Origin: an uncultured bacterium
GTDB taxonomy: Bacteria > Omnitrophota > Gorgyraeia > Duberdicusellales > CBEUCJ01
Reading direction: 5' to 3'
Length of the DNA stretch: 64,000 nt
Assembly: GCA_965541615.1 (NCBI GenBank)
Contig: CBEUCJ010000001.1
Location: 131,754-195,753, forward strand
Below are positions 14,564 to 64,000 of this stretch, piece by piece. The notes beneath the pieces were generated by a model. It ran no database searches. It was given only the letters and a program-made list of their open reading frames with translations, and was not told the origin of the DNA. Made by a program: the position numbers and the translations under genes. Position 1 is the first letter of the stretch, and each line of letters begins with the position of its first letter.

Positions 14564-14638
14564 GGGCGGGTAGTTCAGCCTGGATAGAACGCTTCCCTTA
14601 CAAGGAAGAGGTCGGCAGTTCAAATCTGCCCCCGCCCA
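14564..14638 (+). tRNA. tRNA-Val (anticodon UAC)
   Basis: Acceptor pairs GGGCGGG/CCCGCCC. Anticodon loop CTTACAA, T-loop GTTCAAATC. No CCA is encoded. Confidence 0.9.
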
Positions 14639-15407: not shown

Positions 15408-15486
15408 GGGGCCGTCGTCTAGCCTGGTTTAAGACCCCGGACTGTCGATCCGGTGATCGTGGGTTCAAATCCCATCGGCCCCGCCA
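15408..15486 (+). tRNA. tRNA-Asp (anticodon GUC), CCA encoded
   Basis: Acceptor pairs GGGGCCG/CGGCCCC. Anticodon stem CCGGA/TCCGG with loop CTGTCGA. T-loop TTCAAAT and a terminal CCA. Confidence 0.85.
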
Positions 15487-48625: not shown

Positions 48626-49736
48626 AATAACAAATATTAAAATCAAAAACTTATTATCTTATATAATAGCTGCTTTCCTTTTCTTACGCCCTTTCATTAG
48701 TGATCTTACTTTTGAAAAAATAGAGATTTATTTTTCATCTCTTTTTGATCTGTTTCTCTTTTTAGAAATATTTAAAAAATTCAAAAAAAAGTTTTATGCT
48801 AAATTAGTCTCTTTCTTTTTCTTAAGCTTATTAATTAATTGCGTTTATTCTCACTCTCCTATTTTAAGTACAATTTACTTTTGTAAAAAATATGTCTTTT
48901 GTCTACTCCTTTTTTATTTTTTTCTTTTAAAAACAGAAAGAGAGCTATTTTATAGAATAATTATACTTAGTGCTTTTTTTATTCTCCTTCTTAGCTTACA
49001 TGCTCATTTTGTAGTTGCGACTCATTTAAAAGAAAAGAGTGCCTCTTGGTTTATCTATGAGTTTCTTTCTCGAAAAAGGTTATTTTTTCCTTTTGTGTTA
49101 CCAGCACATTTAGCAGGATTTTTATCTATGGTTATGTTTTTCCATTACAGGACTATTTCTAACAAATTTTTGAAGATAAGTGGTTTGGTGTTCTTTCTTT
49201 TTGGCTTACTTTTAACACAATCTATAGCAGCAGTCTTTTCTCTTTTAATGAGTGTTTTTCTATGTTTATTAATTAAAAAGAAATACAAAAGAATTTTTCT
49301 TTTACTTATACCTTCTATTTTTTTGTTAGCTTTGGTATTCTTTTTACGTCTTCAATATCATAAGGACTTTACTCAACCTTATTTTTCTCTTTTAAAAAGA
49401 ATTGAATATTTTAAAGAGACGATAAAATTAATTTCTAAACATCCTCTTCGAGGAGTGGGTATAGGTTTATTTTCTTTAAAAAATACATTGTTTTCTCATA
49501 ATCTCTTTCTTCAATTATGGGCAGAAGCAGGATTTTTAAGTTTTGTATTATTTTTAATTATTTGTATCTTTTTTATAAAGAAAGGAATGAGAGTAAAAGA
49601 AGAAAAAGATTTTTATATTTTTATAGCTGGAGTATGTTTTCTCATACATAACTTAGTAGATTTTACTTTCTTCACTTTGCAAGTTTCTTTTTTATGGTGG
49701 ATTTGTTTGGGAGTAATTTTAAGTAAGAGCGAGTAA
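48573..49736 (+). CDS. O-antigen ligase / Wzy_C-family polymerase-like membrane protein (the ORF track gives only the C-terminal 213 aa, from 49095)
   Basis: Wzy_C signature H-N-x-x-L-x-x-x-x-E-x-G (SHNLFLQLWAEAGF). The frame is open and hydrophobic for about 175 additional codons upstream of the first ATG (back to 48573) but has no in-frame ATG/GTG/TTG there. Confidence 0.55.
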
Positions 49737-50687: not shown

Positions 50688-51784
50688 AATTTTTGATAAA
50701 GCATCTCTATTTCTCTAATATAACGCTGATAAGACCAATATTCTGTATTTAATCTTTCTCTTTCTTTTTTTATTATTCTATTCCATTCATCTATATTCTT
50801 CAACATTTCTACACATATTTTCCCTAAATTTTTTATATCTTTAAACTCTACTACAAGCCCTTGTTTTTTATTTTTTACAATATCCAAAACTCCTCCTGTG
50901 TTGGTTACAATTAAAGGTATGCCACTTATTACTGCTTCTATTACCGATAAAGGAAGCCCTTCCCAAAGAGAAGTTAATACAAAAATAATCGTTTTTTTAT
51001 AAAAATATGTAATATCTCTTTGCCATCCTAAAAGAAATACATTTTTATCTAATCTTTTCTTTTTTATTAATCTTTTTATTTTTTTTCTTAAAGGTCCATC
51101 TCCTAAAATATAAAATTTAATTTTAGGAAAAATCTTTAAAACATCTTCTGCCATATTTAAAAAATACTTTAAACCTTTCTGAGGTTTTAAAGAAGAGACA
51201 GTGATGATAAAATTATTTGAATTTCTTTCTTTAAATACTTTCTCAAAAATATTCGTTTCAATTCCATAATGAATAAGTTTTAATTTGGAAATAGGAATTA
51301 TTTTTTTGCCTTCATTTAGGTCTTTTTTAGAGACTACAATGATTTTTTTTGTAATTTTAGCTGTCAGTTTTTCTAAAAAAAGATAAAGATAATAACTCAC
51401 AGGAGAGATAAATTTGTGGAATGGCCAACCATGCACTGTGTAGACAATATTTTTGCAACCTGCAAAGAAAGCAGCCCATCTGCCTAAAAAACTTGCTTTT
51501 GGAGAATGGGTGTGAATAATATCAAATTTATGCTTCTTTATATATAAAAATATTTTTATGAAGGCAAATATATCATAAAAAATGTTTATTTCTCTTTTTA
51601 ATTCTTTAATTAGGTAAACTTTTAAATAAGGAATCTTTAAAAAATCTTTTTTTAAAAATCCATAATCACCTGCTAAAAGGAAAAGTTTATATTTTTTAGG
51701 ATCAAGATTTTTAATGAGAAGTAAAAGCTCTTTTTGAGCTCCTCCTAATTCTAAATGAGTAATGATAAACAATATTTTTTTCAT
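50684..51784 (-). CDS. GT4-family glycosyltransferase
   Basis: GT-B fold with the E(x7)E region (LTSLWEGLPLSVIEA). Confidence 0.8.
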   Translation of the reverse strand: MKKILFIITHLELGGAQKELLLLIKNLDPKKYKLFLLAGDYGFLKKDFLKIPYLKVYLIKELKREINIFYDIFAFIKIFLYIKKHKFDIIHTHSPKASFLGRWAAFFAGCKNIVYTVHGWPFHKFISPVSYYLYLFLEKLTAKITKKIIVVSKKDLNEGKKIIPISKLKLIHYGIETNIFEKVFKERNSNNFIITVSSLKPQKGLKYFLNMAEDVLKIFPKIKFYILGDGPLRKKIKRLIKKKRLDKNVFLLGWQRDITYFYKKTIIFVLTSLWEGLPLSVIEAVISGIPLIVTNTGGVLDIVKNKKQGLVVEFKDIKNLGKICVEMLKNIDEWNRIIKKERERLNTEYWSYQRYIREIEMLYQKL

Positions 51785-52881
51785 AGTTTGGAGAAAAGAT
51801 CATTAATTTTAGATTCATAAAAAGAAAAAGAAAACTCTTTAGGTAAAAAAAGTTTTTTTTCTGAAATAGGTTTTTTTATTTTTTGGATAACTTTTTCTAA
51901 TTCATTTAACTCAAATATATTTCTGCTTTTGAAGATCTCTTTTATCTCTTTTGCTCCTCCTTTGAAAGGGAAAAATACATATTTACCATAAAAAATAGCT
52001 TCTAAGATAGCTATTCCAAAAGGCTCTTCTTTTAAAAAAGGAAAAACACAAATATCTGATAAAGATAAGATTTTATCTATGTCTTTTCTGAAACCTAAAA
52101 GATATACATTTTTTAATCCTTCTTTTTCAATAAACTTTTTTATTTTCTTCTTATAAAGTTTATTTTTTAAAGTAAAAGGAGTAATCTCTCCTACAATTAA
52201 GATGATTAAATTTTTCTTTTCTTTAATCACTCTTTTATAAGTCTTTAAAAATTCAAGTTGGCCTTTTTCTGGATGGATACGGGAGATGATACTCAAAATT
52301 ATAGATTCTTTAGGAAAGCCCATTTCTTTTCTTAAAATAAATTTATCATAAAAATTAAATCTTTCTTCATCTACCCCTTCATATATAAGATATGTTTTTT
52401 TAGAAAGAAAAAGTTTTTCTTTTATCGCCTGAGATTGTACAACTATAACATCAGAAAGTGCAGAAACTATTTTTCCCAATATATAATTTAAAGGCGAAAG
52501 GAAAAAGAATTCTCTTATATACCAAACGTGTTTTTTAAAAGTTATTTTTGCTACCAAAGATGAAAAATAAATTAATAAAGAATTAGTAACGATAATGTCA
52601 ATGGGTTTTTTAATTACATAAAAAGAAAAATAAAGAAAAGAAAAAAGAGAAAATAAAAGAAACTTTAAATAATAAATTGGAGAAAGAGAAAAGATCAAAA
52701 CAGGAAGAGGAAAGATAATAATTTTTACATTCAATTTTTTTAATTCTTCTTCTAAAGGCCCCTTTTTAGGAATAACACAGATAATCTCAAATTTTTTTGA
52801 TAACGCTTTTATTAAATTGATCAATCCTCTTTCAGCTCCATAAAGATAATTTCCTGGGTTAAATATAAGAATTTTTTTCAT
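51781..52881 (-). CDS. GT4-family glycosyltransferase
   Basis: GT-B fold (FPFLKEEPFGIAILEA). Confidence 0.75.
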   Translation of the reverse strand: MKKILIFNPGNYLYGAERGLINLIKALSKKFEIICVIPKKGPLEEELKKLNVKIIIFPLPVLIFSLSPIYYLKFLLFSLFSFLYFSFYVIKKPIDIIVTNSLLIYFSSLVAKITFKKHVWYIREFFFLSPLNYILGKIVSALSDVIVVQSQAIKEKLFLSKKTYLIYEGVDEERFNFYDKFILRKEMGFPKESIILSIISRIHPEKGQLEFLKTYKRVIKEKKNLIILIVGEITPFTLKNKLYKKKIKKFIEKEGLKNVYLLGFRKDIDKILSLSDICVFPFLKEEPFGIAILEAIFYGKYVFFPFKGGAKEIKEIFKSRNIFELNELEKVIQKIKKPISEKKLFLPKEFSFSFYESKINDLFSKL

Positions 52882-53723
52882 TTTTTGAGCATGTTAGGTA
52901 ATTCTTTAAATATCTGAAAAAAATAAGGATTAGTAAGAGCAAAATATAAAGATCTGGTTATTTCGTAAGGAAAGCTTTTTAAGAAAAATAAGAAAGATTT
53001 TTTCTTATGATATTTTAATATAACATATAATCTGTTTCTAAAGCACAAATATTTTCTTAATTTTTTAGATATAGGAAAGCCTCCTCCATAATGAAAACAG
53101 ATAAGTTGAGGAAAAAAATTAGTCTTAATATTATATTTTTTCATTTTCATATATAAATCTAATTCTTCAAAAAGAAAAAATATTTTATTATCGAAGACTT
53201 CTCCTTTTTCTTTTATTTTTTCTAAAATTTCCTTTTTAAAGATAGCACAACATAAATTAGGAGCATCTACAAAAAAGGAAGAAGAAAACTTTTTTGGAGA
53301 TTGGTTTTTTCCAATATCATATATTCTATAGAAAGAGCTTATTTTCAATCCACAAGAAAAGATTTTTTTATTTTTTTGATTGATAATTTTAGGAGCAATG
53401 ACAAAATCTATTTTATTTTGAGATATTATTTTTTCTAATTCAAAGAAAAAATTTTTCTCTAAAAAAGCATCACTATCCATGAACATAATAAAATCTCCAT
53501 TTGCTTTTTTAATACCTTCATTGCGAAAAAAACAAGCTCCTTTATTTTCTTTAAATGGAATTATTTTGAAATTATTCGATAATTTTAAATTTTTTTTCAA
53601 AGATATTTTCCCAACCAGAAGAATTTCTATTTTATAAGATTTTTTTTGGTAAAATGATGAAAGAAAATTTAATGTTGAAGGGATTAAATCATTTCCTATA
53701 GGGATAATTACAGATATTTTCAT
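52878..53723 (-). CDS. GT2-family glycosyltransferase
   Basis: N-terminal ISVIIP and a DxD motif (DSDAF). Confidence 0.75.
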   Translation of the reverse strand: MKISVIIPIGNDLIPSTLNFLSSFYQKKSYKIEILLVGKISLKKNLKLSNNFKIIPFKENKGACFFRNEGIKKANGDFIMFMDSDAFLEKNFFFELEKIISQNKIDFVIAPKIINQKNKKIFSCGLKISSFYRIYDIGKNQSPKKFSSSFFVDAPNLCCAIFKKEILEKIKEKGEVFDNKIFFLFEELDLYMKMKKYNIKTNFFPQLICFHYGGGFPISKKLRKYLCFRNRLYVILKYHKKKSFLFFLKSFPYEITRSLYFALTNPYFFQIFKELPNMLKK

Positions 53724-54296
53724 GGAAGTTTATTATACATAAGTTTTAAAAACAAACAAACTTTTTAAGTAAGATATTGTAAAATATCTTATATAAATTC
53801 TTTAATGACCTAAACAAAAAAGACTATACCCTTCTAAAAGAAAGGAAATGGCAGGTTTGTGAAAAAGTTAATTTAATTCTGAAGGAATTTACTCCTAAAA
53901 AGCACTTAAGTAAGGATATTTTGCTGAAGAAAGTATCTTCACAAGATATGAAAAGTAAAGCAAGTAATAAAAGAATTATTAGAATATACTCTAAGTAAGG
54001 AATTAGAAGCTATGATCAAAAGCAAAAAGATACCAACATACAAAAAGTAGCGTTAAATATTTAATTAGGCAGTATAATTAATCAATTTTTGAAGAAAAAA
54101 ACTAATTGATAATTATTTTTCCTGATAAAGATATTTTCTCAAGATAAAAAATAAGGAATTGAGTTAAATATATTTTATCTGTAGCGATGAGAAATATATA
54201 GGAAATACCTTAAAAGAAAATTATCAGAAACATAGAAAAAAGAAGAATTTTTTAATAAAATTAGCTTTAATAAAATTGTTTTAAAGGAGGTGCGGT

Positions 54297-54590
54297 ATGT
54301 GTAGAGAGGAGATAATAGAAAAAATTTTAGTACCCAATGAAGAGATAATTTCATTTAAGGAGATTGATGGAGAGATCGTTTTTTTTCACAAAGAAGAGAG
54401 AAATCTTTATGAATTGAATGAGACAGCAAATTTTATTTGGAAAGAGTTAATTAAAGGAAAGAAACCTAAAGATGTTATAAGAAGTATGCAAAAAAAGTTT
54501 AAAGAAATAAAAAAAGAAGTTTTAGAAAAAGATGTTTTGGATTTTATAAAAAAATTAATTGACAAAAAAATATTTTTGGTCAAAAAATGA
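54297..54590 (+). CDS. PqqD-family protein (RiPP recognition element, RRE)
   Basis: 97 aa with the PqqD signature (LYELNETANFIWKEL...G...P.DVI..M...F....E.LEKDVLDFIKKLIDKKI). GGAGGTG RBS. Confidence 0.8.
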   Translation: MCREEIIEKILVPNEEIISFKEIDGEIVFFHKEERNLYELNETANFIWKELIKGKKPKDVIRSMQKKFKEIKKEVLEKDVLDFIKKLIDKKIFLVKK

Positions 54591-54674
54591 ATAAAAAATT
54601 ACATAAGGATGTAACTGGAGATGTAAACATTGTTATATAATTAAGAATTCGATAAAAGGTATTAACTTTTTCAA

Positions 54675-55880
54675 ATGGATCGAGAGTTTGAAGTAATCAA
54701 ATACTTAACAAAAGAAGTAGTATATGGAAGATATAAAGAACATTTGATAAATTTTTTAACTTCTACTAAGTTAGAGTGGGAAAAGTTAAAGTTCATGTTA
54801 CTTTACAATGAGTTAGCTTCTTTTTTATATATAATATTAAAAAACAATTCCTTATCTCTTCCTTTTGATTTTCTTTCTTTTCTTAAGAATGTCTATTATA
54901 GAGACTTATTTAGATATATTGTATTATTTAATGAGTTATTGACTATACTAGATGCGGCTAATAAGAAGTCAATTCTTATCATACCCATAAAAGGTTTTTC
55001 TATCGGTGAAGAGTATTACAAAAAATTCGGTTTTAGACCTTTGAGTGACATAGATTTATTAATTAAAGAGGAAGAATTAGAAAAAGGAATAAAACTTTTA
55101 TGCGAATTAGGATATGAGAAAAATTTTTTTGGAGCTAAAGAAAGTTATTGGCGTAATAAACAATGTCATATAAACTTTCTAAAAAGAAATAAAAACGGAT
55201 CTATTCTAGTAGAACTTCATTGGTCTTTAGATTTTAAAAGAGACAATAAATATGCCCTTTCTTGTTTATGGAAAAGATTGAAGAAAGTAAAAATAAAAGA
55301 TAAAGAAATTTTTGTTATGGCACCAGAGGATACTTTATTTTCTCTAGCACTTCATCAAAGAAGATTTGGGAAAGTATTTAATCTCAAATATATTTGTGAT
55401 GTAGGCATTATCTTAGAAAAGGAAAAACTTAATTGGGAATATATAATCGAGGCTGCTTATCGAGAAAGAATTAAAGCTTCTTTGTATTTTTTACTATATC
55501 AGACACAGATTATTTTAGATAAAGATCTCAGTAAGTATTTAAAAAAACTAAGAATTAGTTCTTGGCATAAAAGACTAATTTCTTGTGTTATTAGAAAATA
55601 TACAAAATCTTTTATAACTCCTTTTAATCTAAAATATGTCTATACAATTTGTCATTTTCTTCTCTACGACAATATACTCTATCCTATCAAATACGTTTTT
55701 ACTGTTCCTCAGGAACAATTTGCAAAATTTTATCATCTTCCTTTTTATACACCAACTACAGAGAGACTTTATAAACTAAGATATTTATATATTCCTTATA
55801 AAACTGTTAAGGAATTGTTGGATAGGAAAATCTTTAAACGGAATTTTTTAGAAAAATTTAATAGCTGTTTATTTTTGTAA
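54675..55880 (+). CDS. Uncharacterised nucleotidyltransferase (PF14907/NTP_transf_5-like)
   Basis: 401 aa with a GFRPLSDIDLLI nucleotidyltransferase motif. This family is recurrent in RiPP cassettes. Confidence 0.6.
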   Translation: MDREFEVIKYLTKEVVYGRYKEHLINFLTSTKLEWEKLKFMLLYNELASFLYIILKNNSLSLPFDFLSFLKNVYYRDLFRYIVLFNELLTILDAANKKSILIIPIKGFSIGEEYYKKFGFRPLSDIDLLIKEEELEKGIKLLCELGYEKNFFGAKESYWRNKQCHINFLKRNKNGSILVELHWSLDFKRDNKYALSCLWKRLKKVKIKDKEIFVMAPEDTLFSLALHQRRFGKVFNLKYICDVGIILEKEKLNWEYIIEAAYRERIKASLYFLLYQTQIILDKDLSKYLKKLRISSWHKRLISCVIRKYTKSFITPFNLKYVYTICHFLLYDNILYPIKYVFTVPQEQFAKFYHLPFYTPTTERLYKLRYLYIPYKTVKELLDRKIFKRNFLEKFNSCLFL

Positions 55881-56608
55881 GAAGAAGGAATATAAATATA
55901 AATATTCTCTCTTTTCTTTACTACTTCTAAACCTTTCTTAATTAAATGTGATCCTACGCCTCTAGCACGATATAATAGTTTTACATAAGGACCTAGAAAT
56001 AAAATATTATGAGAATTTTTATCTTTTAATATCCAAAGTTTACCTATAGGGATTTTCTCTATTACAGCTACAAGTTTATAGAGAATTACCCAAGAGGGAT
56101 TAGGAAAAAAAATATTATAAAAACTTCTAAATAAAATTTCTTCCTCTTCTTTTCTAACTAAAATATACTTCACCTTCTTTAAAGGAAATAATTTTTTTAA
56201 TAATTTTCTAAAAAAATTAGAAGAATAAAGAATTTCTGTAAATAAATAAGTCGATTCTTTTAAAAAAGAAAAGAAGTTTACAAAAATATAATATAAAAAA
56301 GTATTTTCAAATTTTAAATATTTCAACTTATCTTTTCTATATACGCCTATCACTTTTCCCAAGATATCCTTTGCTTTAACTTTTTCTTTTTTCCAAAAAT
56401 TGAAATCTCCTTTGGTATAAATAATATTATTGTTTTTATCTATTTTTATAACTCTATGGCATATGTACTGCCTTTTTTTTCTAAAAATAATAATATCTCG
56501 AAGAAAAATCTGTGATAAGTTAGTTTTTTTGACTAAAATTTTTTCTTGATTTCTTATAGTAGGATACATACTTTGACCTCTTGAGAGTAAATAAAAGATT
56601 CTTCTCAT
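55796..56608 (-). CDS. Signal peptidase I (S26, Ser/His SipW-like)-GNAT acetyltransferase fusion protein
   Basis: N-terminal S26 boxes (GQSMYPTI, YICHRVIKI with His in place of the bacterial Lys, TKGDFN). C-terminal GNAT motif A (YRARGVGSHLIKKGLE). Confidence 0.55.
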   Translation of the reverse strand: MRRIFYLLSRGQSMYPTIRNQEKILVKKTNLSQIFLRDIIIFRKKRQYICHRVIKIDKNNNIIYTKGDFNFWKKEKVKAKDILGKVIGVYRKDKLKYLKFENTFLYYIFVNFFSFLKESTYLFTEILYSSNFFRKLLKKLFPLKKVKYILVRKEEEEILFRSFYNIFFPNPSWVILYKLVAVIEKIPIGKLWILKDKNSHNILFLGPYVKLLYRARGVGSHLIKKGLEVVKKRENIYIYIPSSYKNKQLLNFSKKFRLKIFLSNNSLTVL

Positions 56609-57389
56609 TTAATAATTTTTAATTAATTCCAAAATTATTAAGAGTGAGAGTTTCAAAAAATCTTTGTTTTATATTCGGGATGACTTCCATAGAGATTTTC
56701 ACCAAAAAATTAATCAAAAGATATTTTCATCTTCTATAAGTACCCCATATTTTTATCCCTTTCTACTAAAACTTCAAATTCAGATATATCATTAACTAAT
56801 AAAGCAGTCAATAGTTTTGTTATTACTTCCATAAGAAAAATAGCAATTAGCTCAGATTTTGTTTTATTGTGATGTTTTTATTTTTTAAACAAATTTTGGA
56901 TTAGAGAGTTTATAGTGAAACATTGTTTCTTTATAAAATATCAAGAAGATAAAAAGCATATTCTCTCCTTAAGAGACGAGTATTTTTTAATTGAAGAGAT
57001 GAAAAAACCAAGACTAAGATAGGCTGATATATTCTCATACTGCCACAAATAGAATATCAGAACAAAATTAAAAGATAAAAAAGTTGCAGAGAATTAAAAA
57101 AATATAGAGTTTTTGAATATAATCAAATCGATGTAAAAAAGATTCAAAAATATTCCTAACCTTTGGGTTTATATGGAAGGATTTGATATTTCCAAATGTT
57201 AAATAGCTTTTGGAGAATTATCTGCAAGAGATAGTTTCTACGTTATACTGTAAAATTTTTACATAATCATTTATTTCAAAACAAAAGTAGAAGCATTTGA
57301 GCATTCTTAATCAGAGGAAAATATCTATTCTCTTTAAAAGAAAAAGGAGTAAAATATAGAAAATAGTTTTTTAAAAACATTAAAAATTT

Positions 57390-57473
57390 ATGGATAATGT
57401 AGTGTTAAGAACCTGCTCATTTTCAACTTTAGAGATTATTTTCTATTTTTCAATTTTGTTTTTAGAAAGTTAA
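57390..57473 (+). CDS. Candidate 27-aa small ORF immediately upstream of, and coupled to, the radical SAM gene
   Basis: ATG...TAA ends 1 nt before the rSAM ATG and encodes MDNVVLRTCSFSTLEIIFYFSILFLES. No clear SD sequence. Confidence 0.2.
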   Translation: MDNVVLRTCSFSTLEIIFYFSILFLES

Positions 57474-57474
57474 T

Positions 57475-58560
57475 ATGAGAAAAAGAGATAAAAATATCCT
57501 TTTTACCCCTTTTCTTATCCAATGGCATATTACCGAGAGGTGTAATTGGAACTGTTTGCACTGTTATAGGAAGAGAAATTCATGTGTAGATTTACCCTTA
57601 AGTGATTTGAAGTATATTCTTCATCAGTGTTTGGGATTATTGGAAGTCTTAGATGTAAAAGATGTGCGAATAAATATTGGAGGAGGGGAGCCGTTTTTAA
57701 GAGAAGATATTTGGGATTTCATAAAGATATTAAAGAAATACAAAGAGATAAAATTGTATATTATGACAAATGGGTCTTTAATTTCTAAAGATGTAGCAAG
57801 AGCACTTTCAAAGATTAAAACTCTTAAAGGAGTTCAGGTAAGTATGGAAGGGTTAAAAGAAACTAATGATAAAATAAGAGGAAAAGGGAGTTTTGAGAAA
57901 ATAGAAAGAGCCATTCGAACTCTAGTCAAGTATAATATTTTTACTAGAGTTTCAGTGACTCTTACAAAGTTAAATTTAGAAGAAATAGAACCCTTGGTAT
58001 CATATCTTAAGGAGTTAGGAGTAAATAATGTCGGTATAAGACGGTTTGTTCCCGTAGGAAAAGGAGAAATTTTAAAAAAGTATATGCTTTCACCATTGGA
58101 GACGAGGGATTTTTATCTATTTAGAGAAGAACTTATGGATAAATATTGTGATAAAAATTTTACAATTTCTTATGGATGTGAAGATGGACTTCTTGTTCAA
58201 GAGGTTGAGAAAATAAGTAAGAAAAGGAGGAAATATCTATACTATACAAATTGTGCAGTATTAAGAAGGAGGGCTCTTACTATTCTTGATAATGGAGATA
58301 TACTTTTGTGTAGGAGGCTTCCTATAAAGATTGGCAATGTTTTTGAAAAAAACTTAGAAGAGATTTTCTTTTTTTCAACACTTGTTCAAAAAATGAGTAA
58401 TTGGAGGAATTTTCTTTCGTATTGTGAAGATTGTCCTTTTTTTTCTTATTGTTTAGGAGGAGCAAGATGTATTGCCTATGGATTCTTTAAAAAAATAGAT
58501 GCACCAGATCCTCAATGTTGGAGGCTCTTTACAGTATTACCTAATTCTGGTATAATTTAA
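57475..58560 (+). CDS. Radical SAM/SPASM-domain peptide-modifying enzyme
   Basis: CxxxCxxC (CNWNCLHC), GGGEPF, and a C-terminal SPASM Cys cluster (CEDCPFFSYCLGGARC). Confidence 0.85.
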   Translation: MRKRDKNILFTPFLIQWHITERCNWNCLHCYRKRNSCVDLPLSDLKYILHQCLGLLEVLDVKDVRINIGGGEPFLREDIWDFIKILKKYKEIKLYIMTNGSLISKDVARALSKIKTLKGVQVSMEGLKETNDKIRGKGSFEKIERAIRTLVKYNIFTRVSVTLTKLNLEEIEPLVSYLKELGVNNVGIRRFVPVGKGEILKKYMLSPLETRDFYLFREELMDKYCDKNFTISYGCEDGLLVQEVEKISKKRRKYLYYTNCAVLRRRALTILDNGDILLCRRLPIKIGNVFEKNLEEIFFFSTLVQKMSNWRNFLSYCEDCPFFSYCLGGARCIAYGFFKKIDAPDPQCWRLFTVLPNSGII

Positions 58561-58578
58561 CAAAAAAGGAGTAAATAA

Positions 58579-58731
58579 GTGAAAAAGAAATTCTTAATTA
58601 ATTTTCAAGAAAGTAAGAAGAAAGATGCCATTCAAAAAAAAGTTTATCAGAAACCAAAGATAAAAAGAGTTGTCTACAAGAAGAAGAAGCTTCCTGTAGC
58701 TATAGCACAGAGTTGCGCCCTTTGTGTATAG
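58579..58731 (+). CDS. Candidate RiPP precursor peptide (50 aa; not in the ORF track, which stops at 60 aa)
   Basis: GTG start 7 nt after a GGAG (AAAAGGAG) RBS. Encodes MKKKFLINFQESKKKDAIQKKVYQKPKIKRVVYKKKKLPVAIAQSCALCV: a Lys-rich leader and a Cys/Ser-containing C-terminal core. Lies between the rSAM/SPASM gene and the HprK-like kinase. Confidence 0.5.
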   Translation: MKKKFLINFQESKKKDAIQKKVYQKPKIKRVVYKKKKLPVAIAQSCALCV

Positions 58732-58744
58732 TTATTTTTAATAA

Positions 58745-59635
58745 ATGCCCTTTTCCTACCAAATAGTCCTTAATAATTTCTCTCTTTCCTTGCATATACA
58801 AGCTGAAAGTTATGTTATTCAGATAATCAGGAAATTCTTACTATATATTTCTCCATGGATTAGAATAGAGAAAATAAAAGGGTACGATAAGAATTTTCAG
58901 ATTTATTTAAAGCCTCTTTCAAAGCCATCTGTAAGACTTCTAGGTGGAGGAAACAAAATTGTGAAGGAAGAAATTAGAAATAAAGATGAGTTTATAATAT
59001 GGTCATCATGGGATGGCTCTTTTTTAAAGACCGATCTTAGGAAAAAAATAGCATATGGAGAATTAGGGAAAAATGAAGTAATAGGTATTTCTATCTTAAG
59101 ACGTTGGTTTGAGACTTTTGTATTCTTAAATAATTGTATTTTTTTACATTCAGCTAATATAAAAGTTAAAAATACATTGAGTACTCTTCTTATAATAGGC
59201 GACTCTGGAAGTGGAAAGAGCACCTTATCTTCTCTTATAAGAAATTATTTCCATTTTAAAGTCATAGATGATGATATAACAGGGTTATTGGATTTTAAAA
59301 AGATTTACTCTTTTTCAATTAGATTTATTTCTTCTTTGGGAAATTTTTTAGAAGTAGAGGCTCTAAAGTTAGAACCAATAGGAATTCCCAGGTTTATTCT
59401 ATTTGTAGAGAGAAAGAAGACAATGTCTAAATTGTGCAGATTAACTTCTAAAGAAGCTTTTAAAAGAGTATGTTTTTTTGCTGAATTTTCCTCTTTTGAT
59501 AATAAAATGTTTGAGCATAAGGTGAAGATTCTAGATAAATTAATAAATCAATGTAATTGTTTTTTGTTAATAAATGGTAAAGATATTTCTAAAGATCCTT
59601 CAAAATTAATCTCACTTTTTTCTTATATTATTTGA
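58745..59635 (+). CDS. HprK-related P-loop kinase (HPr kinase C-domain-like)
   Basis: FLHSANIKVKNTLSTLLIIGDSGSGKSTLS...FKVIDDDITGL parallels the HprK P-loop (GDSGVGKSE) and the following ADD segment. Confidence 0.65.
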   Translation: MPFSYQIVLNNFSLSLHIQAESYVIQIIRKFLLYISPWIRIEKIKGYDKNFQIYLKPLSKPSVRLLGGGNKIVKEEIRNKDEFIIWSSWDGSFLKTDLRKKIAYGELGKNEVIGISILRRWFETFVFLNNCIFLHSANIKVKNTLSTLLIIGDSGSGKSTLSSLIRNYFHFKVIDDDITGLLDFKKIYSFSIRFISSLGNFLEVEALKLEPIGIPRFILFVERKKTMSKLCRLTSKEAFKRVCFFAEFSSFDNKMFEHKVKILDKLINQCNCFLLINGKDISKDPSKLISLFSYII

Positions 59636-60584
59636 CATTTAAAAACTTATCCCATGGGATATGGAGTCTACCCATTATACATTCACCTTTTTCATCTAAT
59701 GTAGGCAACAATAAACATCGAAATTTGCAATAAGGAAGAAGATAGCAATTTTTACACACATCTTCTATTTTTTCTCTATGTTTAAAAGGATATTTTGTGG
59801 TTTTTTTCTTTGTACACGAACTTAAAGATCCATCTGTGTCAATAACCGTTACTCCTTCTGTACAGAAATAGGAACAACCTATCATAGGAATTAATTTATA
59901 TCTTTGAGGAACTAATAAGAAAGAAAAATATCTAACTAAAGAATTTTTACCAAAATAATGATTAAAATCATAGAGTAGTCTATTTAAAATGTCGAAAAAA
60001 TCGTGATGGGGCAAATAATCTTTTCTGTTTTTCGAAAAAACAGGAATTTCTCTTTCCCAAAATATTTCATCTATTAGTTCTTCCTTTAAGAGTTTAATTA
60101 CCAATGAGATTAACCAGTTATATGATGTTTTTCGCAGTAAAGTAACTACTACTTTTATTTTAATATTTTCTTTCTTAACATATCTAAGATATTTAAAAGC
60201 TTCTTTTTGATTTCTCCAAAAATTTCTATACTTGTCTAGAGAAATGGTTAAAGTTAAATGGTTACGTTGTATGAAATCTATACGTTCTTCAATTTTATCT
60301 TTTCTAAAGAAAAAATCAGGATTAGAGGTAATTTCTATATCTACGTCAGGAAAGTTTTTAGAGACGATACTTGCTATTTCATTTAATTTATGAATATCTA
60401 TAGTAAAAGGTTCTCCACCGTGGATAATAACTTTTTGGATTTCTTCTTTTTTAATTTTTTTTATAGATTCCATTAATACGGTCGGAGTTATCATTCTCTT
60501 GGGTGTTTTTTTTACATAACAATGAGGGCATCTAAAAGGGCAGTAATTGGTAGTTTCAATGACTAAAGTTTTTGGAAATGTCAT
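59628..60584 (-). CDS. Radical SAM/SPASM-domain enzyme (second maturase)
   Basis: CxxxCxxC (CPFRCPHC), GGEPF, and a C-terminal Cys cluster (CKNCYLLPYCKFRC). Confidence 0.8.
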   Translation of the reverse strand: MTFPKTLVIETTNYCPFRCPHCYVKKTPKRMITPTVLMESIKKIKKEEIQKVIIHGGEPFTIDIHKLNEIASIVSKNFPDVDIEITSNPDFFFRKDKIEERIDFIQRNHLTLTISLDKYRNFWRNQKEAFKYLRYVKKENIKIKVVVTLLRKTSYNWLISLVIKLLKEELIDEIFWEREIPVFSKNRKDYLPHHDFFDILNRLLYDFNHYFGKNSLVRYFSFLLVPQRYKLIPMIGCSYFCTEGVTVIDTDGSLSSCTKKKTTKYPFKHREKIEDVCKNCYLLPYCKFRCLLLPTLDEKGECIMGRLHIPWDKFLNVK

Positions 60585-61573
60585 TTCTCATTGCTCATTG
60601 CCCTTTCAGCTTCTAATAATATACAATTTACTTCTTTACTTTCTTCAACAGTAAACATTGAAGGAGTTTTAAGAATTACAGGGATTTCTAAGATGATTGA
60701 TACTATTTTAGTTGGAATATTTTTAAATCTAGATGGAATCCATAATTTTGTATATTCTCGAGGTAATAATTCTTTAGCTATTCTCGAATAAGAAAAATTT
60801 TTATACTCTTCTTTGATTAAATGAGAGAGCTCATGTTTTGATAAAATTTTTTTAATCAAGTAGAGTTTTTTATTAAGTCGTATTAATTTTTTTAACATTA
60901 TTGAAGAAGGATGGAAAGCGTATGTCTTGTAAACTATATGATCATCTTCTTTTATATTTATATTCCGGAACACTCCTAATGTGGAGAACCTGTATTTGGG
61001 CGATGTTTTGAAAAATATAGGGAAATATATTTTATCTTCTGCCCCACAATGTTTGTAGATTTCTAAATATGCATTTTTTATCCTTTCTCTTTCCTCAGAA
61101 TTCTTAAATATTTTATTAAAGTTTATTACCTTTGGAGAAACGAATAAAATAATATCTCTTATTTTGTTATCTTTATGTAATGTGATAGATTTAATTGTAC
61201 GGAATTTTAGAAATTGTAATTTGTCTTCTCTTACTGCCATATAGTAGATGTCATCATTGGGACGATAAGGTAAGGCTTTGTAGGAAATGGAAGGAAAAAG
61301 CAGACGGTTATTTTTTATTTTTCCATAAAGAAGAATACTTTCTTTGAATGATAGATATTTAGCATTGTTGAGCAAAGTTTTTATTTTATTTAAAGATATT
61401 TCTCCATTATCTATCAGGTCTGAATATTTTGCTTTAAGTAGATATATAGACGTATAATAGGGAATTCTTTTTTCTGAGAGAAGCCAAAAATAAAGAGCAG
61501 CTAATACCGTGAGACAAATTATTAGTAGGAATGAGATTTTTGTTTTTTTAGAGAATTTCAATATGTGAGTCAT
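60581..61573 (-). CDS. Hypothetical membrane-anchored protein
   Basis: 330 aa with an N-terminal TM helix and no recognisable domain. Overlaps both flanking genes. Confidence 0.4.
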   Translation of the reverse strand: MTHILKFSKKTKISFLLIICLTVLAALYFWLLSEKRIPYYTSIYLLKAKYSDLIDNGEISLNKIKTLLNNAKYLSFKESILLYGKIKNNRLLFPSISYKALPYRPNDDIYYMAVREDKLQFLKFRTIKSITLHKDNKIRDIILFVSPKVINFNKIFKNSEERERIKNAYLEIYKHCGAEDKIYFPIFFKTSPKYRFSTLGVFRNINIKEDDHIVYKTYAFHPSSIMLKKLIRLNKKLYLIKKILSKHELSHLIKEEYKNFSYSRIAKELLPREYTKLWIPSRFKNIPTKIVSIILEIPVILKTPSMFTVEESKEVNCILLEAERAMSNEK

Positions 61574-63059
61574 TATTCACCTCCTCTTTTATTATTTCTT
61601 CCATATTTTTAAATACCACTTCCTTATTTTCAAAAAAAATATTGCTTCCTACTTTAAGAATATTTTTTACTTTTCCTTGAGAAATATTTTTTAAACTCTT
61701 ATTTCTTAATTTTCCTATTATAGCAAAGTACTCATCGCTCTCCTTTTCTTTAAATACTCTTATTATATTTTCAAAGTTTTTTCGAAGAAAATCCCTATAA
61801 TAATTATTCCATAAAAAGGAAAGATTTCTAACTAATAAAATATACTTAATATTTTTTTCTTCTACAAAAAATAATTTAGAAATTTCCACCCTTTTAACTA
61901 ATATCACTTTTTTATTTAAGAGTTTTATGGACTTAATTACTTTATCTATAGGTATTGTATCAGGTATAAAACCTTTGTAGTTTCCACATGGTAAGAGAAT
62001 TCTATCTTTAAATTCGTTCTTAATTTTGTTAAATGTATTAAAGTCACCCGTTATTTCTATTCTATCTTGCATTACTCTTATACATATATATTCTCTGTTT
62101 AAAAGATAATTTCCGACTAATAGAAATCCTCCAATAAATGGAGTATTTTTGTTTGTAAAAAAATATAATCCTATATCAGATATTCTTTTATTTAATGGGA
62201 AAAAAGGAGCTTTATTGAACCAAAAAAAGACGGCACGGATGATATAGAGGAGGACAATAATTTTAACTTCAAGCATATCTGTGCTTGCTATACTCCAGTT
62301 AGGTATGAAGCAGGGGGGTAGGTATAGGAAACTTTCAAGAGTAAAAGTGCCTCTTTTGTTTTTATGGATAAAGAATACGCTATGGTTATCTTCGTTTATG
62401 CAAGACGATTTTAAGCGGGTTACTCTATGGATAGTTACTATAGGAAGAAAATCGGGAGAGATTTTCATTAAATTACATAAGAAAGCACTATTTTTTAGAT
62501 AATTTATCCTGACTTTATTTTTTTCTATAATAACATTTATAAAAGAGTCTATAAATATTTCAAAAATTCCATCTTTTTTATTATGATTTACTAAAGAAAC
62601 TCTATATTTTCTTATTCTGTCTATAGTTTTTATGAAGAGCTCTTGAATTGTCTCTTTTTCTAAAAATAATATTTTATAGAGAATATCACCTGTGGGGGTA
62701 AGAACAAGTAAAGGATACAATAGATTTAAATTAAAAGGCTTTTCCGTATTTATTTTTATACTTTTGAAGAGAAAAACCTTTTCCTTATTATATATTTCTA
62801 TCCAAACACCAAAGTTAAAGAAGACTGATCTATCTTTTTCTTCTGATGTAGTATGAAAATTTTCGAAATTAATAATTTCTCGTCTTGAGAAATAATTTAT
62901 GAGCTCTTCGTTCTTATAAGAAATCATATAAGAAATCAACGGAATGATATGTGTTTTCTCCTTTTCGAAATACAAAGATTTTTCCAAAAAGTTTTTGTAA
63001 TCAGATAAATTCTCTTTATTTTTATAATCTTCCAAAAATCTTCTAATTAAAGTCGACAT
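61548..63059 (-). CDS. Hypothetical protein (503 aa)
   Basis: Long ORF in operon with the neighbouring genes. No recognisable motif. Confidence 0.4.
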   Translation of the reverse strand: MSTLIRRFLEDYKNKENLSDYKNFLEKSLYFEKEKTHIIPLISYMISYKNEELINYFSRREIINFENFHTTSEEKDRSVFFNFGVWIEIYNKEKVFLFKSIKINTEKPFNLNLLYPLLVLTPTGDILYKILFLEKETIQELFIKTIDRIRKYRVSLVNHNKKDGIFEIFIDSFINVIIEKNKVRINYLKNSAFLCNLMKISPDFLPIVTIHRVTRLKSSCINEDNHSVFFIHKNKRGTFTLESFLYLPPCFIPNWSIASTDMLEVKIIVLLYIIRAVFFWFNKAPFFPLNKRISDIGLYFFTNKNTPFIGGFLLVGNYLLNREYICIRVMQDRIEITGDFNTFNKIKNEFKDRILLPCGNYKGFIPDTIPIDKVIKSIKLLNKKVILVKRVEISKLFFVEEKNIKYILLVRNLSFLWNNYYRDFLRKNFENIIRVFKEKESDEYFAIIGKLRNKSLKNISQGKVKNILKVGSNIFFENKEVVFKNMEEIIKEEVNNDSHIEIL

Positions 63060-64000
63060 TTTTTAAATTATTAAAGAATAATTTTGCTAGCTTTAGAGAG
63101 TATAGATAATCTTCAGAAAAAATTCTATCCTTAGGATACATAAAAGGTATAAATCCATTTTTAAGAATTATTCCACTAAGGTTAAGGATAACTTTCTTAT
63201 TTTTCATTTCTATTAATGAAAGTTTCTCCAAACATGCTAAATGATCTTCTAGTAATTGAAAAAGAGAAGGAGGCAACATAGCTTCATAACACCAATATAA
63301 GAGAAGTCGGAATCTAGATACCTCTAAGGAGATATTTTTTTCTTTTTTAAAAAGAATATTCTCTAAACCACGTTTTTTTATATTTAAGAAATACTGAGGG
63401 GGATTAGGGTTTACTTTATTTAGATCATAATAACGTGTTTCTGCAAGAGGTCCTAAACCTATTTGGATAGTTTTTCCATTGAAAATTTCTTTATTAATCT
63501 TTATTTCCTCATAGGGAAAACTTTTTGTCGTTTTTTTAAAAGTAAATCTAATTCCTGCTCCTCCCTTTCTTATGAACAAATTATTTTTTATAAAGTTATT
63601 GCTCACTATGAAAGAGAAAAGAATCCTTTTTATAATGTCTTCTAAGAAGGAGTATTTTGGAGAGTAGATTTTGTTCATTCTTTTTTTAGAACTGTAGTTA
63701 TAAAGAGTAATAAAAATTTCTTTATTATCTTTGAAGTTTTTTAGGAAAGATATAAGATTTATTAAATCTGTTAAATAATTAAAATTAACTTCAGGATAGT
63801 CTATAATAAGATCAATATTTAAACTCAAATCTAACTCTAATACATTTTTTATGCCTTCTAGTACTGTATCCTTTGTATAACGTCTTTCCATTTTTTTTAA
63901 AATACTATTTCTAAGACTTTCTACCCCTAGAGAGATATAATTGAAACCAATATCCTTCAAATTCTTAAGGAAATTTTTGTCTATGCCATATTTATCAGGA
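63043..64000 (-). CDS. Radical SAM-family protein, C-terminal portion (N-terminus beyond the window end)
   Basis: The frame stays open to the window edge. The ...GFNYISLGVESLRNSILKKMERRYT... block is typical of the radical SAM core downstream of the CxxxCxxC loop, which would lie outside the window. Confidence 0.55.
   Translation of the reverse strand, partial: PDKYGIDKNFLKNLKDIGFNYISLGVESLRNSILKKMERRYTKDTVLEGIKNVLELDLSLNIDLIIDYPEVNFNYLTDLINLISFLKNFKDNKEIFITLYNYSSKKRMNKIYSPKYSFLEDIIKRILFSFIVSNNFIKNNLFIRKGGAGIRFTFKKTTKSFPYEEIKINKEIFNGKTIQIGLGPLAETRYYDLNKVNPNPPQYFLNIKKRGLENILFKKEKNISLEVSRFRLLLYWCYEAMLPPSLFQLLEDHLACLEKLSLIEMKNKKVILNLSGIILKNGFIPFMYPKDRIFSEDYLYSLKLAKLFFNNLKNVDFN

Follow-up and report, generated by a model that had tools for sequence, protein, structure and literature searches.

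We analyzed a 64,000-nucleotide stretch of DNA (hereafter the window) from an uncultured bacterium of the Omnitrophota (GenBank assembly GCA_965541615.1, contig CBEUCJ010000001.1, positions 131,754 to 195,753 of the forward strand), and find that the gene block at its end, from position 54297 onward, is probably a member of a conserved but uncurated cassette of the RiPP type (peptides made by ribosomes and modified after translation), which is apparently widespread in Omnitrophota and would operate by the mechanism proposed below. The conserved core of this cassette comprises four genes, coding respectively for a discrete RiPP recognition element (RRE) of the PqqD family, a radical SAM (rSAM)/SPASM enzyme, a precursor peptide of about 50 residues, and an HprK-related P-loop protein. 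A previous annotation of the same DNA, made by a model from the letters and a list of open reading frames (ORFs) (the sequence-only reading), had described the block as an uncharacterized RiPP-type maturation cassette, and was right in kind as regards the PqqD RRE, the rSAM/SPASM enzyme, the P-loop protein related to HprK, and a nucleotidyltransferase of the PF14907 type; however, it overlooked the precursor gene, which was found here by its position, its motif, and a profile match.

The candidate substrate of the cassette appears to be a tiny, Cys-containing ribosomal peptide of 50 aa, encoded on the plus strand at 58579-58731 between the rSAM/SPASM and P-loop genes, with a GTG start and an AAGGAG 7 nt upstream; as read from the sequence it is MKKKFLINFQESKKKDAIQKKVYQKPKIKRVVYKKKKLPVAIAQSCALCV. 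It is unchanged in a strain-variant contig (L001; 99.35% identical over 12.4 kb and extending beyond the window end), and a small ORF of 44-69 aa occupies the same position in all nine of the related loci described below, giving, with the window included, a family of eleven peptides from ten loci, one of which encodes two different precursors. The family has a Lys/Arg-rich N-terminus, a leader motif of the form Y-x-x-P-x-[I/L/M/V/F]-[K/R/E]-x-[V/I], a spacer followed by mostly small residues including Ser/Thr, and a C-terminal tail with 1-12 Cys. The distance from the motif Tyr to the first Cys is 21-30 residues, a Ser or Thr lies no more than eight residues N-terminal of the first Cys in all eleven peptides, six of the eleven end in an aromatic residue, and in five the last two residues are a Cys and an aromatic or hydrophobic residue after it. 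The window core (...AQSCALCV) has only two Cys and is without a repeat, and precursors such as those of L011 and L214 have Cys/Gly/Ala/Ser-rich tails with ACG-x units. A profile built from the ten non-window peptides, run against the 547 ORFs in the window that are 18 aa or longer, recovers the window peptide with an E-value of 2.4e-7 (runner-up 0.5), and the pattern Y..P.[ILMVF]K.[IV] is present in just one of these 547 ORFs, namely the precursor ORF. None of the curated NCBIfam peptide models matched any of the precursors.

The leader is reminiscent of YxxPxL, the RRE-recognized leader motif of lasso peptides, which has been seen in kinase-containing lasso clusters (PMC10368454). The leader motif of the family also occurs in peptides with different cores that are encoded beside more remote rSAM/SPASM genes (L145, L166, L199, and L161), and the pairing of leader and RRE is therefore older than the present precursor family. 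At three of these loci, whose rSAM/SPASM proteins are of 31-35% identity, the peptides (L166 345-479, L199 1412-1564, and L145 4909-5031) carry leaders of the form Y-E/Q-K/E-P-x-Φ and differ in their cores (…CRQCSGCHGCR; …WCFGCTNCNCN), with no curated family matched.

The rSAM/SPASM enzyme has more than 500 homologs, the closest at 45-56% identity and several of them labeled Omnitrophica/Omnitrophota. Starting from these, we compared ten independent loci (the window, L005 [L005/6], L007, L008 [L008/9], L010, L011, L211, L212, L214, and L215), counting orthologs with BLAST and custom hidden Markov models (HMMs). The genes for PqqD, the rSAM/SPASM enzyme, the small ORF, and the P-loop protein were found together in ten of ten, the NTP_transf_5 (PF14907) gene in eight, and a gene for a fusion of an S26-type peptidase with a GNAT-like domain in five. 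A mutually orthologous second rSAM/SPASM gene, distinct from the second rSAM of the window (rSAM318, see below), is carried by seven of the ten and is missing from the window and L005. A locus from Pacebacteria (L213) with 40% rSAM identity differs in its gene context and lacks PqqD. When genome contigs were scanned with the rSAM alignment, most of the proteins recovered were remote rSAM/SPASM enzymes (at most 35% identity), L011 being the sole close locus, and a DNA-pattern scan of metagenomes for QWHxTExCN reached a broader family of 28-36% identity with few useful loci among the matches listed. At the strain level, window positions 51550-64000 differ from L001 at 79 sites, which are unevenly spread (19 lie in rSAM318 and 18 in one GT4 glycosyltransferase gene); the 5.3-kb segment that starts with PqqD and ends with the P-loop gene contributes eight of these, none of them in PqqD, NTP_transf_5, or the peptide, and such substitutions are too few for gauging selection.

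The RRE (54297-54590, plus strand, 97 aa) matches the PqqD family (PF05402) with 51.5 bits (gathering threshold [GA] 23.4), as the sequence-only reading had it, and has orthologs of 33-48% identity in all related loci but L215, where a more divergent one (28%, for which the family HMM was needed) is present. The rSAM/SPASM enzyme (57475-58560, plus strand, 361 aa), which is without a fused N-terminal RRE, matches Radical_SAM (PF04055) with 79 bits and SPASM (PF13186) with 27.1 bits (GA 21.5), and has a CX3CX2C motif along with eight further Cys that are invariant in 41 homologs. Its AlphaFold2 (AF2) model has a pLDDT of 92.9, and the folds that best match the model are SuiB, SkfB, anSME, CteB, TigE, and PqqE, with TM-scores of about 0.7 (anSME 0.70); in a search of PDB sequences with the family profile, the thioether synthases SkfB (E-value 1e-25) and CteB came out on top. 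Among curated rSAM models the scores were 154 bits for the ACGX-system enzyme (cut-off 400), 131 for GeoRSP, 129 for SbtM, 119.6 for MftC, and 66.8 for anSME. The core motif, the SPASM domain above its GA, the extra Cys, and the predicted fold together place the protein among the peptide-modifying SPASM enzymes, a general class within which fold and sequence do not fix the chemistry. Likewise, the PqqD RRE and the adjacent short precursors, whose leader is conserved while their Cys cores vary, give the cassette the sequence features of an RRE-dependent RiPP system. The cassette is not a known defense system: with PADLOC, which covers known anti-phage defense, only generic rSAM-core likeness to pVip was seen (86 and 27 bits), and the other eight proteins returned nothing.

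The fourth core component, the P-loop protein (58745-59635, plus strand, 296 aa), has orthologs in nine of nine related loci at 26-39% identity. The sequence-only reading had called it HPr-kinase-like, which holds for the family more clearly than for the window protein alone: the latter scores 13.5 bits against HprK_rel_A (TIGR04352) and 16.9 bits against HprK_rel_B (TIGR04355), far from the cut-off of 200, but its orthologs reach up to 54.9 bits against HprK_rel_A and match ScmC (20 bits) and HPr(Ser) kinase weakly, with the weak Pfam ScmC match recorded for those of L007 and L215. An alignment of seven sequences displays an invariant His about 20 residues before a GxSGxGK[S/T] motif, in which the G, K, and T of the P-loop do not vary either, and an acidic pair (DD) after it. 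In hhalign the family profile aligns with HPr kinase with 77.5% probability (E-value 1.9e-5) across the His, the Walker A motif, and the DD; the HPr kinase query was validated against PDB 1ko7 (8e-125). With all three elements of the HprK-type core present in the family, the protein is by its sequence HprK-related, and it lies outside every curated family. Searching PDB sequences with the P-loop profile gave generic Walker-A matches only, and a word-based homology search with the protein found only itself.

Two accessory genes lie between PqqD and the rSAM/SPASM gene. The nucleotidyltransferase-fold protein (54675-55880, plus strand, 401 aa) matches NTP_transf_5 (PF14907) with 121 bits, bearing out the earlier assignment, and has orthologs of 46-58% identity in L008, L010, L011, L211, L212, and L214 and of 28% in L215. 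It is fused to a second rSAM/SPASM domain in a 760-aa protein encoded directly 5′ of PqqD in L010 (7358-9646), and in L211 and L214 its gene belongs to the same operon as those for an rSAM/SPASM protein and a glycosyltransferase of the PMT_2 type. The other gene (55796-56608, minus strand) encodes a protein of 270 aa combining an S24/S26 peptidase domain of the ER/archaeal type (Ser-His) with a GNAT-like domain; the catalytic-Ser motif is retained only with the 270-aa start. That this is an S26-GNAT fusion, as previously read, is supported by conserved motifs in its orthologs (L008, L211, L212, and L214, 36-41% identity), whereas its own scores are slight: 24.3 bits for Peptidase_S24 (GA 23.3), 48.2 for sigpep_I_arch (cut-off 51.85), and 17.9 for GNAT (below GA). 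The SMxPT box with the catalytic Ser, the His base, and the GDN box of the S26 family can be recognized as GQSMYPT, CHRV, and GDFN; the corresponding GQSMxPT, CHRV, and GDxN motifs are kept in the fusion orthologs (L212 and L161 showing variants), and the four full-length fusion orthologs also share a YR[AV]RG motif of the GNAT type. No transmembrane (TM) segment is predicted for the fusion, which points to a soluble, presumably cytoplasmic peptidase, and we propose from these motifs that it serves as a leader peptidase and N-acetyltransferase. A distant cluster (L161 5452-9193) combines a YEEPKV-leader peptide, a broken rSAM (by frameshift or assembly error), an HprK-like protein, PqqD, NTP_transf_5, and an S26 peptidase without GNAT, and adjoins YcaO and dehydrogenase genes; the accessory module is thus also found with azoline-type machinery.

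Which genes are present, how they are conserved, and the existence of a family of precursors are direct observations, and from them, together with characterized systems, we infer the chemistry as follows. By analogy to PqqD/PqqE, MftB/MftC, and the lasso B1 proteins, PqqD would bind the leader at Y23-x-x-P26-x-I28-K-x-V and hand the peptide to the rSAM/SPASM enzyme, which would then modify the Cys-containing C-terminal core (...AQSCALCV). The likeliest single product would be a Cys thioether of the sactipeptide or ranthipeptide type, to which we give somewhat less than an even chance, the alternatives being another crosslink or an oxidation. The HprK-like protein might phosphorylate the Ser/Thr before the first Cys (Ser45 in the window peptide), and NTP_transf_5 might then add a glycosyl or nucleotidyl group, a step modeled on lasso systems that we advance still more tentatively. 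The S26 domain could cleave within the small-residue stretch preceding the Cys core (VAIA|QS, A-x-A-like), and the fused GNAT domain could acetylate the new N-terminus, yielding a product of 6-11 residues.

The kinase and nucleotidyltransferase steps draw on the lasso peptides paeninodin and pseudomycoidin, in which an HPr-kinase homolog phosphorylates a Ser of the precursor and hexose is attached to this phosphate by a nucleotidyltransferase (PMC8498205). Phosphorylated and phosphoglycosylated lasso systems share with the window cassette a PqqD RRE, an HPr-kinase homolog, a nucleotidyltransferase, and a YxxPx[L/I] leader. In contrast to them, the central enzyme of the window cassette is an rSAM/SPASM protein and its peptidase is of the S26 type; moreover, no Pfam or NCBIfam match to a lasso cyclase (Asn-synthetase-like) or a transglutaminase-like B2 peptidase was obtained among the proteins of the block and its extension, indicating that it is not a lasso cluster. 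The sactipeptide and ranthipeptide maturases SkfB and CteB, the best PDB sequence matches of the rSAM/SPASM enzyme, likewise act on Cys-containing cores, but CteB-type enzymes carry a fused N-terminal RRE in place of the separate PqqD seen here, the sequence identity is about 20%, and the thioether in the window is a prediction. The rSAM/SPASM enzymes of the ACGX system (TIGR04340), GeoRSP (TIGR04303), and SbtM (TIGR04082) represent the highest-scoring curated models, yet the window enzyme falls well below their cut-offs of 350-400 bits and the precursors lie outside the curated peptide models. Literature searches, within the papers searchable here, found no description of this cassette. By class we take it to be an RRE-dependent rSAM/SPASM RiPP system, with a new precursor family and an unusual accessory set (HprK-like kinase, PF14907, and S26-GNAT).

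Beyond the P-loop gene the block continues as a convergent operon on the minus strand, whose last gene codes for a second radical SAM protein, rSAM318 (59628-60584, 318 aa; Radical_SAM 50.8 bits), with an 8-bp tail-to-tail overlap with the P-loop gene. The sequence-only reading had counted two SPASM radical SAMs, of which the plus-strand one stands by Pfam; rSAM318 has no Pfam SPASM match, but is supported by its SPASM-type Cys motif, in that its CX3CX2C, CX2CX5CX3C, and four more C-terminal Cys are all kept in the L005 ortholog (52% identity). Nor are the two a conserved pair: among the related loci, the closest relative, L005, is alone in having the second. Upstream in the operon are genes for two large proteins that had been described as without recognizable domains and indeed have no Pfam or NCBIfam match, the profile searches of both families against PDB also coming back empty. 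One (60581-61573, minus strand, 330 aa) is an orphan anchored in the membrane by a predicted N-terminal TM segment at residues 9-35, with three paralogs in the L005 operon at 20-22% identity; the other (61548-63059, minus strand, 503 aa) has a central hydrophobic segment, its sole homolog among 1.84 billion representatives is a 520-aa protein of L005 (33% identity), and a word-based homology search with it found only itself. The third radical SAM, noted earlier as cut by the window edge (63043-64000, minus strand), is a HemN-like protein of class-C type (hemN 115 bits, below cut-off) with a complete length of 483 aa in L001, where it is preceded by a 560-aa HemN-like paralog with 54% identity to its L005 ortholog; the operon thus continues past the window end, where the sequence-only reading had placed the boundary of the block. 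Both HemN-like proteins keep the CX3CX2C and GGGTP motifs. The window, L001, and the nearest relative L005/L006 are the only loci with rSAM318, the orphan genes, and the HemN-like genes of this operon, and by gene content the convergent operon is a lineage-specific add-on outside the conserved core. Its role may be to tailor the peptide, methylation being one example, a link suggested by synteny with one relative.

The other side of the cassette and its counterparts elsewhere are rich in glycosyltransferase (GT) genes. On the opposite strand 5′ of PqqD lies a divergent operon of GT2 (52878-53723, minus strand, first gene; PF00535 45 bits), GT4, GT4, and a PF00953 phosphoglycosyltransferase, with a short Wzy_C-like ORF and cell-wall genes beside it. 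The Wzy_C-like ORF (49095-49736, 213 aa) comes after a 470-bp ORF-free gap (48626-49736 region) and may be a truncated or decayed gene of the O-antigen-ligase type. Every close locus sits amid GT2, GT4, PMT_2, Wzy_C, Phosphodiest, or ABC-2 genes, an observation confined to the loci themselves. Two of the flanking transferases in the window genome, a GT2 (35% identity) and a GT4 (49%), have orthologs beside the cassette of L212, and these identities resemble those of the core genes, which suggests a larger co-inherited island; the GT2 was possibly co-inherited with the cassette, judging by this orthology. The ABC transporters compared across the loci are not orthologous. Genes of the alkaline-phosphatase superfamily also flank some cassettes, with three sulfatases in L215 (3975-8257) and Phosphodiest together with GT4 in L007, L008, and L212; HMM scans of the block and its flanks found no Phosphodiest or sulfatase gene near the window cassette. 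Past the window end, three divergently oriented genes of L001 (4453-6816) encode proteins without a family match (73, 142, and about 560-577 aa), two of which, those of 73 and 577 aa, start with a signal-peptide-like segment, and beyond these come genes for GT9, GT4, an ABC-2 transporter, and an amine oxidase. A bolder scheme, which we regard as unlikely, would unite the cassette and the co-inherited GTs (GT2 and GT4; PMT_2/GT-C and Wzy_C in relatives) in one Omnitrophota pathway. Its product would be either a new class of mini-peptide, crosslinked by radical SAM chemistry and phospho-glycosylated, or an envelope glycoconjugate primed by a peptide; the phosphoglycosyl handle placed on the conserved Ser/Thr by the kinase and NTP_transf_5 would be extended by the GTs, and the HemN-like/orphan operon would supply lineage-specific tailoring.

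In terms of layout, the window lineage has the order PqqD-NTP5 / S26-GNAT / gap / rSAM, the gap being an AT-rich 866 bp (56609-57474, 23.7% GC) between the S26-GNAT and rSAM/SPASM genes with no ORF above 43 aa. Given that PqqD directly adjoins rSAM/SPASM in the nine related loci, the gene order has evidently been rearranged in this lineage; tblastn of the gap recovered no remnants of cassette genes, and no Rfam family matched in the block, gap included. Just 5′ of the precursor gene, a promoter-like site (TTTACA-17-TATAAT with TG, 58528-58556, plus strand), identified by consensus match only, is the top sigma-70-like match (11/12, extended -10) within 53.6-60 kb, and a terminator-like hairpin with a T-rich tail (58705-58727, plus strand), likewise a pattern match only, coincides with the end of the precursor ORF. 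The sequence-only reading had put the GC content of the block at about 33%, above its flanks, and saw in this a hint of horizontal acquisition; the measured values are 26.4% for the block, 28.4% for the remaining window, and 24.9% for the adjacent flank, and 31-32% is reached only by the rSAM/SPASM and peptide genes (1-kb range in the window 22-36%), leaving no GC signal for such an acquisition. The same reading had made its case depend on the genes being co-conserved as a block in relatives, and this is what we find on the plus-strand side: PqqD, rSAM/SPASM, the P-loop protein, NTP_transf_5, and S26-GNAT recur, but rSAM318, the orphans, and the HemN-like genes do so in L005 only. The sole RNA genes detected in the window are those for tRNA-Val(TAC) at 14564-14638 and tRNA-Asp(GTC) at 15408-15486.

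Several alternative explanations have to be weighed against a single peptide-maturing cassette. The strongest, for which the prospects are not far from even, is that two unrelated units merely meet tail to tail, viz., a plus-strand RiPP module and a minus-strand operon acting on another substrate such as a lipid, a cofactor, or an envelope component. The minus-strand operon is indeed missing from eight of the ten loci, seven of which have a different second rSAM/SPASM; by the ORF list and HMM scans it lacks an RRE or peptide gene of its own, and its two orphans carry the hydrophobic segments noted above. However, L005/L006 mirror the tail-to-tail overlap of the P-loop and rSAM318 genes (4 bp) despite divergence of the proteins to 39-56% identity, and extra methylase-type rSAMs recur by other cassettes, with a B12-rSAM near those of L211 and L212 and a HemN-like one near that of L212. 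It is rather improbable that the peptide instead gives rise to a small metabolite or redox cofactor akin to PQQ or mycofactocin, with the C-terminal residues excised and perhaps glycosylated. A discrete PqqD-type chaperone, an rSAM/SPASM enzyme, and a very short peptide are shared with mycofactocin (MftA/B/C) and PQQ (PqqA/D/E), the MftC model reaches 119.6 bits, the aromatic and Cys-plus-one endings of the precursors would fit this reading, and GTs are constantly close by. Yet the family cores, unlike those of the cofactor systems, are variable and Cys-rich and are accompanied by a kinase, a nucleotidyltransferase, and S26-GNAT; all cofactor models fall far below cut-off; and hypervariable core lengths and Cys counts (1-12), along with two different precursors at one locus, are what one typically sees in RiPP natural products, unlike a cofactor, whose core is fixed.

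The sequence-only reading had likened the block to the SynChlorMet cassette (TIGR04248-TIGR04251), which is defined by comparative genomics only and has no known product. The same kinds of parts do occur in both, i.e., a PqqD-like protein, one or more rSAM/SPASM enzymes, and an HprK/ScmC-like P-loop protein, with weak ScmC matches in orthologs of the latter; the window cassette adds S26-GNAT, NTP_transf_5, and its own precursor family. At the HMM level the identity has to be rejected, with the equivalog scores 3- to 6-fold under cut-off: against ScmD (TIGR04248, cut-off 100) the window PqqD has 30.4 bits and its orthologs 24-25; against ScmE (TIGR04250, cut-off 400) the rSAM/SPASM enzyme has 112.9, under its scores for ACGX, GeoRSP, SbtM, and MftC, and rSAM318 has 20.5; against ScmF (TIGR04251, cut-off 400) the first rSAM has 72 and the second rSAM/SPASM of the relatives 56-60, ScmF being absent from the top 25 matches of rSAM318; and against ScmC (TIGR04249, cut-off 125) the window P-loop protein has no match at E<0.1 and the L007 ortholog 20 bits. 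Ten distant rSAMs were also checked for a genuine SynChlorMet locus, and none reached any curated cut-off. With all four Scm models this far off and the ACGX-system model the best for the rSAM, a bona fide ScmC/D/E/F cassette is the least probable of the readings considered, to the point of being nearly negligible. Scarcely better is the possibility that the rSAM/SPASM enzyme is an anSME-like maturase for a neighboring alkaline-phosphatase/sulfatase-superfamily enzyme or another envelope protein, the small ORF being incidental: anSME is among the best structural matches, and Phosphodiest genes adjoin the cassette in L007, L008, and L212 and sulfatase genes in L215, but the window has no such gene nearby, the anSME model gives a low score, and a PqqD RRE with a small peptide conserved in position and sequence is present at all ten loci.

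Certain observations weigh against the RiPP cassette as we propose it. The sample is of ten loci only, and as these were reached via rSAM/SPASM homologs, the presence of the rSAM is there by construction; two of them, L005 and L007, are without NTP_transf_5 and S26-GNAT inside the available flanks. The 50-aa ORF is a candidate gene, identified from its sequence. The window P-loop protein is by itself weakly HprK-like (at best the 16.9 bits given above) and its single-sequence AF2 model is unusable (pLDDT 36), and the HMM scores of S26-GNAT are marginal, with its cleavage site a guess based on where small residues lie. In the lasso systems the Ser that becomes phosphorylated is C-terminal but the Ser/Thr of the window family are internal, and with the non-thioether enzymes SuiB, anSME, and PqqE among the structural neighbors of the rSAM/SPASM protein, the reaction may be of another type than thioether formation.

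Diversity among rSAM-dependent RiPPs is expected as such. To our knowledge, almost no specialized metabolism is known from the Omnitrophota, which are uncultured bacteria, and the analysis defines in them a recurrent and testable RiPP-type family with its precursor, leader motif, and minimal gene set. The pair of a kinase and a nucleotidyltransferase, as far as we know previously documented only for lasso peptides, stands here beside an rSAM/SPASM enzyme; this association, together with the fusion in one relative, suggests a portable module for RiPP tailoring. As a leader peptidase of a ‘cut and cap’ kind, the soluble fusion of an S26 peptidase with GNAT would be unusual, and the constant association with glycosyltransferases leads to the concrete hypothesis that these organisms make peptide glycoconjugates.

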